This document shows positions 42,496 to 45,818 of a stretch of 64,000 bases of DNA, piece by piece (position 1 is the first letter of the stretch; each line of letters begins with the position of its first letter). The translations under genes and the position numbers were made by a program. Location of the stretch: the IMG/VR virus record IMGVR_UViG_3300017963_000239, positions 17,880-81,879 of that record. One strand, 5' to 3'. The notes under the pieces are model-generated. The model did not search any database and was not told the origin of the DNA. It worked only from the letters and a program-made list of their open reading frames with translations. The DNA is from a virus.

Positions 42496-42540
42496 ATGGC
42501 ACTCGCATCGGTCAACAGAGTCAGGTACGTCCGTGCCTAA
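42496..42540 (+). pseudogene. Displaced original 5' end of baseplate J-like gene (MALASVNRVRYV)
   Basis: Same peptide as 43548 start except Y/F, different codons; AAGGA RBS. Confidence 0.85.
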
Positions 42541-43567
42541 GAAAGCGGATCTTCTAGGACGCCGATTTGGGCGGCTCCTTGTGGTGGCTGCAGCACCCAA
42601 TCAGGGTAGGTGCACGGTTTGGGAAGTGCGGTGCGACTGCGGGGCCACGAAAGAGGTGCGCACGGATAGTCTGCGCAGCGGTAACACTAGCTCTTGTGGT
42701 TGTCTTGTAGGTCAGGGGATGAGGAAACACGGGGAGGCTCGCAAGACCGCTGAGTACACAGCGTGGCAACTGATGAAGCAAAGAGCGGGGGCGTCCAAAG
42801 GGCGCATCTGCGTAGCTTCTCGCTGGAAATATTCCTACGGGCACTTCTTGGAGGACATGAGGCGGAAATCAGATCCAGACGCCACTTTGGATCGTATCGA
42901 TTCGGATGGGCACTATGAGCCGGGGAACTGTCGCTGGGTGTCTCGAACGCAGCAAGCGCAGAATATCCGATCGAACAGACTCCTAGAGCACCAAGGGGAG
43001 ATCAAGTGCTTGACGCAGTGGGCGCGAGAAGTTGGATTGGCAGTGACTACAATATCGGGACGTTTGGGGCGTGGGTGGTCGGTGGAGCGAGCGCTGGAGA
43101 CGCCGCCGACTCATGGGACCTTCAAGCGGAAAGGTTCGCTGAAAAACGAGTACAGCGCGGAATACTCGACTTGGTCGCAGATGAAAGCTCGTTGCTACAA
43201 CCCAGACCACAAGAATTTCCCTACATACGGAGGGAGCGGAGTGAAGGTTTGCGGGCGCTGGAAAAAGTCGTTTGAGTGTTTCTTGGCAGACATGGGGCGC
43301 AGGCCCTCGGCAAAGCACTCTCTCGATCGAATCGACGTGCGGAAGGGCTATTCGCCTGAGAACTGTAGATGGGCCGACGCACGAACGCAGCAGCGCAACC
43401 GAAGCAACAACCGCCTCATAACTTTTGAAGGTCAGACTCGGTGCCTTCAAGAGTGGGCAGAGCGTCTTGGTATTGATCATCGCGTGATACGATCTCGCCT
43501 GCAACGGGGCTGGGACGAAGCTGTCGCGCTTACCACTGAGGTGTCCAATGGCTCTCGCATCAGTTAA
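42533..43567 (+). CDS. Tandem-domain HNH endonuclease (baseplate cassette)
   Basis: Two copies of EY..W..MK.R...RW..S...FL.DM...LDRID...Y.P.NCRW....Q..N. Confidence 0.9.
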   Translation: MPKKADLLGRRFGRLLVVAAAPNQGRCTVWEVRCDCGATKEVRTDSLRSGNTSSCGCLVGQGMRKHGEARKTAEYTAWQLMKQRAGASKGRICVASRWKYSYGHFLEDMRRKSDPDATLDRIDSDGHYEPGNCRWVSRTQQAQNIRSNRLLEHQGEIKCLTQWAREVGLAVTTISGRLGRGWSVERALETPPTHGTFKRKGSLKNEYSAEYSTWSQMKARCYNPDHKNFPTYGGSGVKVCGRWKKSFECFLADMGRRPSAKHSLDRIDVRKGYSPENCRWADARTQQRNRSNNRLITFEGQTRCLQEWAERLGIDHRVIRSRLQRGWDEAVALTTEVSNGSRIS

Positions 43568-45818
43568 CCGTGTTCGTTTTGTCGGTTTTGACTTCGACAC
43601 CCACGTGGATGATCTGCGAGCGCGCTTGCAGGTCAAGTTCGCAGCGTACTACAACGACTTCGCCCTGGCGTCGTTGGGCATGATGCTGCTCGACATGATC
43701 GCCTACGGGCTCGACTCGCTCAGCTTCTACCTGGATCGTCGTGCTACCGAGGTCTACCTTACGACGGCGCGGACTCGTAAGGGCGTCGCCCGTATCGCCC
43801 GCCAGCTCGGCTACAAGATGGGCGGCGCAGTAGCGTCCTCGACAGACCTGACAGTCAGCGTTGTCACGGCTCAGTCCTATACGGTGTCCATCCCCGCTGG
43901 ATTTCAGTTCGAGGGGCCGAATGACTTGATCTTCGAAGCCGGCGAGGCGGTAGAGTTTTCTCCGGCGGAGCAGACTGCGGGGACCTCGAAGCTCGTTCCT
44001 GTCTATGAAGGCGAGTCGGTGTCTGAGACGATCACCTCGGACGGTACAGCCAATCAGGTGTACGAGCTAACGCGTTTGCCGGAGGGGAAGAACGTGGCTT
44101 CCGGCTCTGTCGAAGTTTCTGTGGATGGGGTCTCCTTCAAGGAAGAGGACTTTCTCAAATTCGAGGAGACCGATCAGTACGAGGTAGGGTACAACGACGA
44201 TCCTCCTACCGTGCGGTTCGGGGATGGCACCGCGGGGAACATTCCAGCCACCGGCGCTTCGATTGTTCTTTCCTACGTAGCTACGTCGGGCAAGGCGGGC
44301 ATCGTGGGCAAGGAGACCATCCAGGCCGCCGTCACGCCGTTGGTCGTAGGAGGCGATACAGTCGACTTGTCCATCAACAACGTGAAAGGGTCCTCAGGCG
44401 GAGACGACTTGGAGTCGTTGGACCACGCCAAGTCGTTCGCTGGCCGCGTGTTCAACTCTCGCCGGGTGGCAGTCACGAGAGAGGACTACGACGCGCTGGC
44501 GGGTTCGTATGCCGACCCTGTGTATGGTCGTGTGGCGGTGGCGCAGGCCATCTCGTCGCGTTCGGCGGCCACGGACCTCGTGCTGCAGGACGCCATCTTG
44601 GCTATCACCAGCGCGTTGGAGGGGGCGGTAGACACCATCCGGGATGAGATCTCCGACGCGACGACGGCCACCACGGGCACGTTGAACCAGATCTTGGACT
44701 TCTCCTCCACGATCTCTTCGGCGCTGGACAACATCGTCACGGCGGTGGGGACCATAGACACCAACGCAGCTGCTTTGCTTTCAGGCGTCCGAGCCAACCG
44801 GAATCTGTCGTTGGAGGTCGACGTCGATGCCGACACTTCGAAGACCCACGTCACGGACGGTAAGGCGCTCGTGAATGGCTTCACGGTAGGCAGCCCTACG
44901 GTGATCACTACGGTGGATCGAGATGCCGTTTTGGCCTACTTCAACTCGATCGACACGTTGCAGGACTCCATCGTGTCTAAAGCAGCGACGATGAAGGGGT
45001 CATCCGATACACAGATTGGGGCCATCGGCCTGGTGAACGACGAGATCGACAAGATCGGTCTAGCCAAGACGTCGCTGCAGATCGACGGCTCCGACTCCTA
45101 TCTGAAGAGCGCCGAGGACTCCCGAGCTTCCATCGACGTCATCGTGGGCTTCTACGACAGCGCCGACCCCACATCGAGCACGGGACTGTTCCGGACTTTC
45201 AACTTCACGTTGGAAGGCGTAGCAGACGATCTCGACCCCAGCGAGGCGGGCGCCACGTCCACCACGGTCTCGGAGAACTTGACCATCATCGACGAGCACG
45301 TGGACAAGATCTTGTCTGCTGACTGCAAGGCCAATCTCGTGACGGTGCCCATCCTGGTTCGTGACGCGGCAGGCTTCTACACCGCGCCTAGCAACGGTCT
45401 CGTGGGGTCATTGGAGGACTACCTGAACGTCCGGAAGGAAGTCACTCAGACGGTGGAGGTGGTGTCGGGGGGCAAGTTCTTGATCTACCCCACTATTGCA
45501 GTACGTGTCGGCGTGAATCAGGGCTACTCGCTGGAGCAAACGAGGACCGCGGTGGAGACGGCGATCGACGGGGTGCTGAAGGACCGGGAGTTCGGTGACT
45601 CGCTGTACGTGTCCGATCTCATCCAGGTCGTTTTGGGCGTGGAAGGGGTGGGGTTCACCAACGTCACGATCTCCGGCTACACGACTCTGCTCGACTCCAC
45701 GGTGCAGACCGCTAAGCTGGATTCTGAGGGCAATTTGATCATCGAGACCTCAGAGGTCATCACCAAGACGCCGGGAGCCGTGACGGTTACACCCGAAGCC
45801 ATTCAGGTGGAGGCTTGA
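43548..45818 (+). CDS. Baseplate J / gp6-like wedge protein
   Basis: DFD, YL.TA, LGY, RFGDG..G..P, GG.D.ES, R.AVT..DY. Confidence 0.88.
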   Translation: MALASVNRVRFVGFDFDTHVDDLRARLQVKFAAYYNDFALASLGMMLLDMIAYGLDSLSFYLDRRATEVYLTTARTRKGVARIARQLGYKMGGAVASSTDLTVSVVTAQSYTVSIPAGFQFEGPNDLIFEAGEAVEFSPAEQTAGTSKLVPVYEGESVSETITSDGTANQVYELTRLPEGKNVASGSVEVSVDGVSFKEEDFLKFEETDQYEVGYNDDPPTVRFGDGTAGNIPATGASIVLSYVATSGKAGIVGKETIQAAVTPLVVGGDTVDLSINNVKGSSGGDDLESLDHAKSFAGRVFNSRRVAVTREDYDALAGSYADPVYGRVAVAQAISSRSAATDLVLQDAILAITSALEGAVDTIRDEISDATTATTGTLNQILDFSSTISSALDNIVTAVGTIDTNAAALLSGVRANRNLSLEVDVDADTSKTHVTDGKALVNGFTVGSPTVITTVDRDAVLAYFNSIDTLQDSIVSKAATMKGSSDTQIGAIGLVNDEIDKIGLAKTSLQIDGSDSYLKSAEDSRASIDVIVGFYDSADPTSSTGLFRTFNFTLEGVADDLDPSEAGATSTTVSENLTIIDEHVDKILSADCKANLVTVPILVRDAAGFYTAPSNGLVGSLEDYLNVRKEVTQTVEVVSGGKFLIYPTIAVRVGVNQGYSLEQTRTAVETAIDGVLKDREFGDSLYVSDLIQVVLGVEGVGFTNVTISGYTTLLDSTVQTAKLDSEGNLIIETSEVITKTPGAVTVTPEAIQVEA

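Follow-up and report, generated by a model that had tools for sequence, protein, structure and literature searches.

Introns and inteins are the textbook means by which homing endonuclease genes reside inside essential genes without killing their carrier. Free-standing elements of the T4 kind instead have intact genes on either side, or divide one gene into two functional parts, as in Aeh1 nrdA. In synthetic “home-and-rescue” or “cleave-and-rescue” drives, a nuclease targets an essential gene and the element itself carries a recoded, cleavage-resistant copy. Free-standing endonuclease genes of T4-like phages have been reported to spread together with flanking DNA by double-strand-break repair, a process termed “intronless homing” (PMC2988022, PMC2790892). 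A different arrangement has been described in fungal mitochondria, where an endonuclease mORF brings along a foreign C-terminal end of the gene and pushes aside its native counterpart, with cases in atp6, atp9, cox2, and nad3 of Glomus (PMC3630166) and, as cited within that work, in atp6 of Allomyces macrogynus. Here we describe a locus in a 64,000-nucleotide stretch of DNA from an uncultured marine phage (hereafter “the window”; positions 17,880 to 81,879 of the 81.9-kb IMG/VR virus contig IMGVR_UViG_3300017963_000239, such that genome coordinates are window coordinates plus 17879). Within a contractile-tail baseplate operon, a free-standing gene for a predicted HNH-type (PacI-like) endonuclease sits at the start of the baseplate J gene, and comparative evidence supports the view that it is probably a homing cassette that carried over a foreign start of that gene.

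The closest described system is the mitochondrial mORF hybrid. In both, the endonuclease open reading frame (ORF) appears to travel with a foreign copy of the end of the invaded gene, and the native end persists as a displaced duplicate; in DNA, this native end hardly differs from that of cassette-free relatives, and the imported end is divergent in DNA and conserved in protein. The mORF cases are C-terminal, often in frame, of the LAGLIDADG or GIY-YIG type, and found in organelles, whereas the present case concerns the N-terminal end of a phage structural gene and an HNH-type nuclease. As the N-terminal end is the one replaced, the cassette must, unlike an mORF, import a ribosome-binding site and a start codon as well, and the native start is kept as a mini-ORF that abuts the start of the nuclease gene. 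C-terminal versions with the same HNH family exist at two other loci in our comparison (L082 and L030). The locus also resembles T4-like free-standing homing endonuclease genes such as those of SegF, SegG, and MobE, which need no intron or intein, lie by essential genes, and are variably present (PMC2988022, PMC2790892), and its nuclease ORF likewise overlaps the stop of the upstream ORF. The T4 literature that we searched, including a T4 review, reports no duplicated, respelled gene end flanking such elements, and a full-text search of the phage literature returned none around a homing endonuclease, although this search was limited and is not proof of absence. Synthetic rescue drives are engineered with Cas9 in insects; unlike them, this system would be natural and protein-guided, with a putative immunity through recoding.

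If this reading is right, a phage homing endonuclease gene has found a third way of living inside an essential gene, which is to bring a substitute for the piece that it displaces, and this would explain how coding sequence can be invaded. The locus would be the equivalent in nature of engineered gene drives of the rescue type and would show a route for gene-end swaps between phage lineages. It may also explain short orphan ORFs and odd “duplicate starts” near phage nuclease genes, which are easily mis-annotated.

The start of the J gene is duplicated around a nuclease gene

The nuclease gene (42533..43567; this and the other features of the locus are on the + strand) encodes 344 amino acids from a GTG start. 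It lies between a gp25-like baseplate wedge gene (42064..42486; Pfam PF04965 GPW_gp25, E 5.7e-15; stop TAA at 42484-42486), which has the same position in all relatives, and an intact baseplate J/gp6-like wedge gene of 756 amino acids (43548..45818; PHROG 219 baseplate wedge subunit, E 4.5e-35; TIGR02243, 2.7e-24). The first 12 codons of J are present twice. The upstream copy, from 42496, reads ATG GCA CTC GCA TCG GTC AAC AGA GTC AGG TAC GTC (MALASVNRVRYV), and the downstream copy, from 43548, reads ATG GCT CTC GCA TCA GTT AAC CGT GTT CGT TTT GTC (MALASVNRVRFV). They are alike at 26/36 bases and 11/12 residues, and the seven codons that differ comprise six synonymous differences and one replacement, Y11F. 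An unprompted repeat search also returned the two copies, as a 39-nucleotide direct repeat with 72% identity and a spacing of 1052.

The upstream copy begins nine nucleotides after the gp25 stop, a gap identical to that in the cassette-free relative L002, and is preceded by what reads from the sequence as the native J translation-initiation region (42485..42495), with an AAGGA Shine-Dalgarno at 42485-42489 and a 6-nucleotide spacer. It continues CGT GCC TAA and thereby forms a mini-ORF of 14 sense codons (42496..42540; MALASVNRVRYVRA followed by the stop), a remnant of the native J start made up of codons 1-12 (perhaps 13), two more codons, and the TAA; homology to native J stops after GTC (42531) or CGT (42534). 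The mini-ORF overlaps the nuclease GTG (42533) by 8 nucleotides, with the nuclease in the +1 frame. At the other end, the cassette-borne replacement of J codons 1-12 (43548..43583) overlaps the final 20 nucleotides of the nuclease ORF, whose TAA stop (43565-43567) spans J codons 6/7 of this copy. A new Shine-Dalgarno for J, GAGGTG (43538..43543), can be read inside the 3' end of the nuclease ORF, 4 nucleotides before the ATG. Compared with cassette-free relatives, the window has an extra 1052 bp that holds the nuclease gene and the replacement start (42532..43583), as judged from the repeat spacing and the empty sites of the relatives; owing to the repeat, 42496-43547 are equally valid boundaries. 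A sequence-only reading of this DNA had described two copies differing in 7 of 12 codons and a single residue, an upstream copy that forms a 14-codon ORF overlapping the HNH GTG, and an HNH stop within the downstream copy, and all of these details were confirmed.

Flanks were compared for 87 homologous nuclease ORFs in 80 IMG/VR loci, and the best 10-residue match between the flanks of the window nuclease scores 45; mismatched flank pairs reached 36 at the 99th percentile and 41 at most. The match thus goes beyond what chance would give, and the relatives described below settle the homology. In a simulation of random substitution, 10 changes in the remnant left at most one residue altered with P ~3e-5. 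The copies in a second cassette, that of L008 (see below), differ at 19/39 bases with only 4 residues changed (P <5e-6 under random substitution). Because the differences within the repeat pairs are almost only synonymous, the copies must have diverged as working starts and not by drift after a local duplication.

Relatives with and without the cassette

Scans based on J recovered ten related loci. The insert is absent at eight of these (L002/L087, L006, L089, L091, L092, L093, L094, and L095), where the J ATG stands directly after gp25. Identity of J to that of the window is 81% in L002/L087 (full length in L002), 74% in L006, and 71% in L089. The junction in L002 reads TAG ggaatcgac ATG GCA CTC GCA TCA ATC AAC AGG GTC AGG TAC GTC GGG TTC GAT, and the upstream copy of the window stands exactly at the J-start position of these cassette-free relatives.

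The second cassette belongs to one phage with records from two samples (L007/L088 and L008/L090), whose J is 73% identical to that of the window. Its nuclease is 69% identical to the window nuclease and is the best match of the window protein among 5.8 billion proteins, with the next-closest nucleases (P0003-P0005) at 52-59%. The L008 cassette has the same insertion codon and the same three parts, namely remnant, nuclease, and new start. The remnant reads ATG GCG ACA GCT AGC GTA AAC AGG GTT CGG TAC GTG GGG GTG CAG TAG, and the nuclease ATG lies 2 bases past this TAG. The new J start, 20 nucleotides before the nuclease stop, reads ATG GCC ACC GCG TCG ATT AAC CGC GTC CGT TTT ATT and has a new Shine-Dalgarno, GGAG, 8 nucleotides before its ATG. 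In both cassette-bearing phages the nuclease stop (T-AA) falls across J codons 6/7, and both occupied sites are at codon 12/13. In a maximum-likelihood tree of J, the window and the cassette-free L087 are sisters (support 100/99), and the distribution of the cassette requires at least two gains or losses in all bootstrap trees.

The earlier reading had proposed cassette-free relatives as a check. Eight were found that lack the insert, the nearest relative included, as well as a second cassette-bearing relative with the same layout. The proposals that a nuclease cassette interrupts the start of the baseplate gene while bringing a differently spelled working replacement, and that the upstream copy is the old native start, were both borne out.

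As for further J relatives, a metagenome scan gave one, with an empty site, and a genome-contig scan gave none; a gp25-based scan found no relatives, and no cultured phage was closer than ~27% in J. The stretch itself is identical in 11.2-kb contigs of two public Logan DNA runs, a sediment metagenome (2018) and a seawater metagenome (2021), and no cassette-free contig of the window phage was seen in the assembled contigs of those two runs. No RNA run was listed among those that contain it. One apparent cassette-free joint in the sequencing runs was rejected, as its sides were only 26 nucleotides long and derived from other DNA.

The upstream copy as the resident start

To assign the two copies, we compared J codons 6-12 (21 nucleotides). 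The window remnant is closest to the native start of L087 (19/21), and the L090 remnant is closest to the native start of L089, from the same sample (19/21). The cassette-borne copy of the window is closest to the cassette-borne copy of L090 (16/21), and either cassette-borne copy matches any native start at 10-13/21, that of the window at 11-13/21. Over the full repeat, the window remnant agrees with the J start of L002/L087 at 33/36 bases and the window cassette-borne copy agrees with the native start of L002 at 26/36, with each of them 10-11/12 identical in protein to the L087-type start. The spelling follows the same division: native starts and remnants of close relatives have AGR or CGG at both Arg codons and TAC at codon 11, while both cassette-borne copies have CGY and CGT at the Arg codons and TTT at codon 11. 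Because of this pattern of spelling and nearest sequences, we regard the upstream copies as the resident starts and the downstream copies as belonging with the nuclease. The two remnants differ from each other at 13/36 bases with one residue change (L3T). As the copies must have diverged under function, their divergence argues against an old single insertion with neutral decay of the remnant, and also against local duplication followed by escape mutations.

The sequence-only reading had taken the two spellings as evidence that rescue means the same function with different DNA. That the replacement start is spelled differently stands, but a dedicated recoding does not, as 260/605 conserved codons (43%) differ synonymously between the J genes of the window and L087, and some 14-codon windows of J reach 80-100% synonymous difference. 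Given the gene-wide figure, the 6/10 synonymous differences between the copies are ordinary divergence between orthologues. Judging from these sequences, no special recoding process is needed, and the differences look like the J allele of another phage lineage. By analogy, the “rescue” is better described as the carry-over of a foreign gene end, like that in mitochondrial mORF hybrids (PMC3630166), and selection may act on which foreign allele can coexist with the nuclease. Codons 8, 10, and 11 are changed alike in two cassettes whose nucleases are 31% diverged. This is the sole hint of such selection, and the only, indirect, support for a nuclease that would tell the two spellings apart; the shared changes point to AGG GTC AGG TAC G as a candidate recognition core. 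More broadly, the comparison of old and new spelling points to a probable recognition site in codons 8-13, which makes the specificity of an uncharacterised family testable.

A predicted PacI-like nuclease with two modules

The window protein matches four PHROG families of “HNH endonuclease” (3377, 374, 2081, and 953) with E from 6.8e-92 to 3e-23, in two matched stretches, and belongs to a very large family, with >5,400 matches among 8,000 scored candidates. Its GTG start aligns with the ATG of the 69%-identical L008 orthologue. An N-terminal Cys-rich beta domain (C34, C36, C55, and C57) is followed by two tandem modules, each with a catalytic motif and then a helix-turn-helix. The window protein and its four closest homologues each have the motif, L-D-R-I-D-x3-5-Y-x-P-x-N-C-R-W-x6-Q-x2-N, in the two modules alike, and in the first module D120, R121, Y128, N132, and N144 are invariant or nearly so across 30 homologues. 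Phage HNH endonucleases include a recognised “PacI-like” class (PMC12724721). A model made with AlphaFold from the homologue alignment has a mean predicted local distance difference test score of 87.6, and a structural search of it against representatives ranked PacI (3m7k_A) first, with a root-mean-square deviation of 2.0 over 75 residues (model residues 67-147) and a Z of 7.2, which is moderate and within the tool's range for unrelated best matches. The core of the nuclease would thus have a putative PacI-like beta-beta-alpha-metal fold.

PacI is a homodimeric restriction enzyme and not a mobile element. Its likeness to the window protein lies in being the best structural match and in the features of the active site, where the window nuclease lacks the canonical His and has an invariant Tyr; in PacI, a Tyr rather than a His reportedly starts strand cleavage, which would fit the invariant Y128 and the missing His. 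Unlike PacI, to which it is 17% identical, the window protein has two modules per chain together with helix-turn-helix and Cys-rich domains. The protein is likely a site-specific nuclease, and its two catalytic modules per chain could mean that both strands are cut.

A sequence search against solved structures (PDB) gave no match to the nuclease, and a search of NCBIfam gave only a sub-threshold match to a SigZ-like helix-turn-helix. The profiles PF13392 and PF01844 match other genes of this genome and not the nuclease ORF. The GC content overall and at third codon positions is 0.57/0.62 in the nuclease gene compared with 0.60/0.78 in J; as the codon usage of nuclease genes is often different, we do not take this as a sign of foreign origin.

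Proposed homing and expression of the cassette

In the mechanism that we propose, the essential J gene would be occupied at its 5' end by a free-standing homing endonuclease gene of the large phage PacI-like HNH family. This gene would move as one unit with a foreign allele of J codons 1-12 and a new ribosome-binding site, both carried at the 3' end of the nuclease gene. Once inserted, the unit would leave the resident codons 1-12 and their own ribosome-binding site as a dead-end mini-ORF, and the remainder of J would be read from the imported start. The nuclease would cut cassette-free J around codons 8-13 (AAC AGG GTC AGG TAC GTC GGG), and during co-infection, repair from cassette-bearing genomes would copy in the nuclease gene and the imported start. 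The remnant would be spared since its right half-site is replaced by cassette DNA, and the imported copy would be spared since its left half-site is respelled (AGG/AGA to CGY, AGG to CGT, and TAC to TTT). That this respelling confers immunity to the cassette's own nuclease is a reasonable supposition, with about an even chance of being right.

No promoter-like or terminator-like sites were found on the coding (+) strand at the cassette, and no Rfam intron was found in 42000-44000 at E <= 1, which suggests that the cassette probably lies within the baseplate operon transcript. We also considered a group I intron or an intein and rejected both, as there is no Rfam intron, a TAA closes the remnant ORF, and the nuclease is read in the +1 frame relative to it; splicing is moreover unnecessary because the J start is duplicated. 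RNA folds around both junctions are no more stable than those of shuffles.

The nuclease start adjoins the end of the preceding ORF in every example of this architecture found. In three independent ones this is a short ORF, namely in the window (8-nucleotide overlap), in L008 (TAG-CC-ATG), and in L044 (ATGA), and in L082 the nuclease start overlaps the upstream gene as ATGA. For T4 free-standing endonuclease genes, stop-start overlaps have been taken to suggest translational coupling (mobE) or ribosome scanning (segC, segF, mobA, and mobC), and have been read as keeping nuclease levels low (PMC2988022). In the cassette, a low level of nuclease translation would result from termination and reinitiation at the mini-ORF, which retains a strong late-gene initiation site. 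The arrangement of these ORFs supports, as a hypothesis, the coupling of the mini-ORF to nuclease translation that the sequence-only reading had suggested. Such coupling has about an even chance of being right, and it is not the sole option because weak Shine-Dalgarno-like purine runs precede the nuclease starts.

Alternative explanations

Several observations count against a homing cassette with a carried-over foreign start. At residue 3 of J, the two window copies share Leu (CTC/CTC) and the two L090 copies share Thr (ACA/ACC), as compared at 43548-43562 vs 42496-42510 in the window and at 3951-3965 vs 5019-5033 in L008. A shared residue 3 is not predicted by a foreign cassette-borne start; short gene conversion outside the recognition core, co-adaptation, or coincidence may account for it. 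The cassette-bearing lineages retrieved at the J start number only two, and between these two phages the nuclease is 69% identical, J 73%, V 63%, and gp25 55%, so that a nuclease divergence close to that of its neighbours would also fit long vertical co-descent. At 6/10 codons, the imported copy differs synonymously no more than J as a whole does between orthologues, and its divergence therefore does not speak for selection for immunity. At sites informative between the window and L087/L090, a candidate co-conversion tract has 14 L090-like vs 8 L087-like sites over codons 6-28, while codons 29-54 are 18:1 L087-like; because similar patches occur elsewhere in J, this tract is weak and we do not claim it. 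As for the protein, a Pfam search of the nuclease ORF found no HNH domain or other family, the canonical first His of the HNH motif is replaced by D-R, and Foldseek with the whole model returned nothing significant.

The similar divergence of the nuclease and its flanking genes is what a single ancient insertion in the ancestor of the window/L087/L089/L090 clade would produce if it was followed by vertical descent and by later precise loss from L087 and L089, either through recombination between the 36-nucleotide repeats or with cassette-free phages. The two cassettes also share the insertion codon, the stop across codons 6/7, and Y11F, and two gains and one gain plus one loss are equally parsimonious should L089 branch outside, a fork that the tree leaves unresolved. 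Under this history, however, a non-functional remnant should have decayed, and yet each remnant still has its start codon and 11-12 of 12-13 native residues, with L3T as the only residue change among the 13 base differences between them. The nearest cassette-free lineage differs for each remnant, and 8/10 lineages are empty, with all of the deep ones among them. We therefore consider an ancient insertion unlikely.

The lineage-specific residue 3 (Leu/Leu in the window and Thr/Thr in L090) would be expected if the repeat had arisen by local duplication of ~36-39 bp through illegitimate recombination, with the downstream copy then acquiring synonymous escape mutations under self-cleavage, and in the window codons 1-5 of the two copies are indeed identical at 13/15 bases. 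In L008, by contrast, codons 1-5 match at only 9/15 bases, including AGC vs TCG for Ser, and the 10 (window) and 19 (L008) substitutions far exceed what escape would need. The downstream copies also share derived states and are each other's nearest sequences in the core, such that independent recoding would need convergence, and we judge this origin improbable, more so than an ancient insertion. Least probable of all is that the ORF encodes a DNA-binding or regulatory protein that has been domesticated, or is a relic without activity, with the repeat a fossil recombination scar of no present role: the missing Pfam HNH match, the absent catalytic His, and the moderate structural match would agree with it, but two lineages have the ORF intact, both modules retain the motif residues (the first of them across 30 homologues), Y128 is invariant (in keeping with the use of Tyr that is ascribed to PacI), and presence or absence at one exact site is a hallmark of mobility.

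Gene-end carry-over at other genes

The same scan of flanks showed gene-end carry-over at unrelated genes for other members of the nuclease family (L044, L082, and L030). The start of an unrelated small Gly/Ala-rich gene in L044 (1438-2200) is occupied by a relative of the nuclease with a single module. A remnant of 20 codons (MAFDWKALVRTVAPTLGTAL and its stop) precedes this nuclease and has an ATGA overlap with the nuclease start, and a new start (MPPFDWKDLIKQVAPVLGTALGG...) that shares 18/30 bases with the remnant lies inside the 3' end of the nuclease gene. The other two are C-terminal versions. In L082 (3790-4540), the end of the upstream gene, VRAKLYQEPEK plus stop, is repeated as VRAKLYQDPQG plus stop at the end of a truncated nuclease that is without its C-terminal helix-turn-helix. 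In L030 (3780-4700), the end of the upstream gene (...NKELLIGVNIKNAKYVD plus stop) is repeated past the nuclease as a remnant (...NKRELLIGLNNKNCK plus stop). The last 10-15 residues repeated in L082 and L030 carry synonymous differences. Peptide repeats also flank related nucleases in L023 (4600-5550) and L045 (750-1800), and we left these unclassified as ambiguous; in L023, KGASPGSPCPR is repeated with 9/11 codons differing at the third position only.

The genome of the window phage encodes at least nine PF13392 (HNH_3) genes and several PF01844 (HNH) loci, and many of its HNH genes lie inside an array of 37 transfer RNA (tRNA) genes and one transfer-messenger RNA gene. As judged by eye, a tRNA-His at 335-910 is split at the anticodon loop, with the old 5' half at 335-375 and the old 3' part at ~884-910; between them are an HNH ORF (start ~397) and then a complete, differently spelled tRNA-His (810-883). 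This split tRNA-His is the RNA-gene counterpart of the baseplate case. We tentatively suggest, at slightly less than an even chance of being right, that phage members of the large PacI-like HNH family, and probably other phage nucleases as well, regularly live by replacing gene ends with respelled, cleavage-resistant versions. Such elements would amount to a natural home-and-rescue drive that needs no intron or intein to colonise tRNA genes, as in this genome, and the coding ends of genes for essential proteins, and that reuses the native start as a translational launch pad for the nuclease.

Genomic context of the locus

The upstream part of the baseplate operon consists, in order, of a tape-measure-like gene, a small LysM-like gene, a gene for a 463-amino-acid protein, a gp27/V-type spike gene (PF04717), and a gene for a Pro/Leu-repeat protein; these are followed by the gp25-like wedge gene, the nuclease ORF, the J/gp6-like gene, and a gene for a 539-amino-acid protein. 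Within J, codons 29-56 (43632-43715) have a DNA identity of 95-98% to L002 and show hardly any synonymous change, compared with 76% identity for the rest of the gene, and this patch may reflect recent recombination or a constrained nucleotide element. The Pro/Leu-repeat protein, encoded at 41687-42052 between the spike gene and gp25, has 121 amino acids and consists nearly entirely of PxLPxLPGLP-type repeats. It is kept at 71-83% in all relatives, and a long antisense ORF overlaps its gene.

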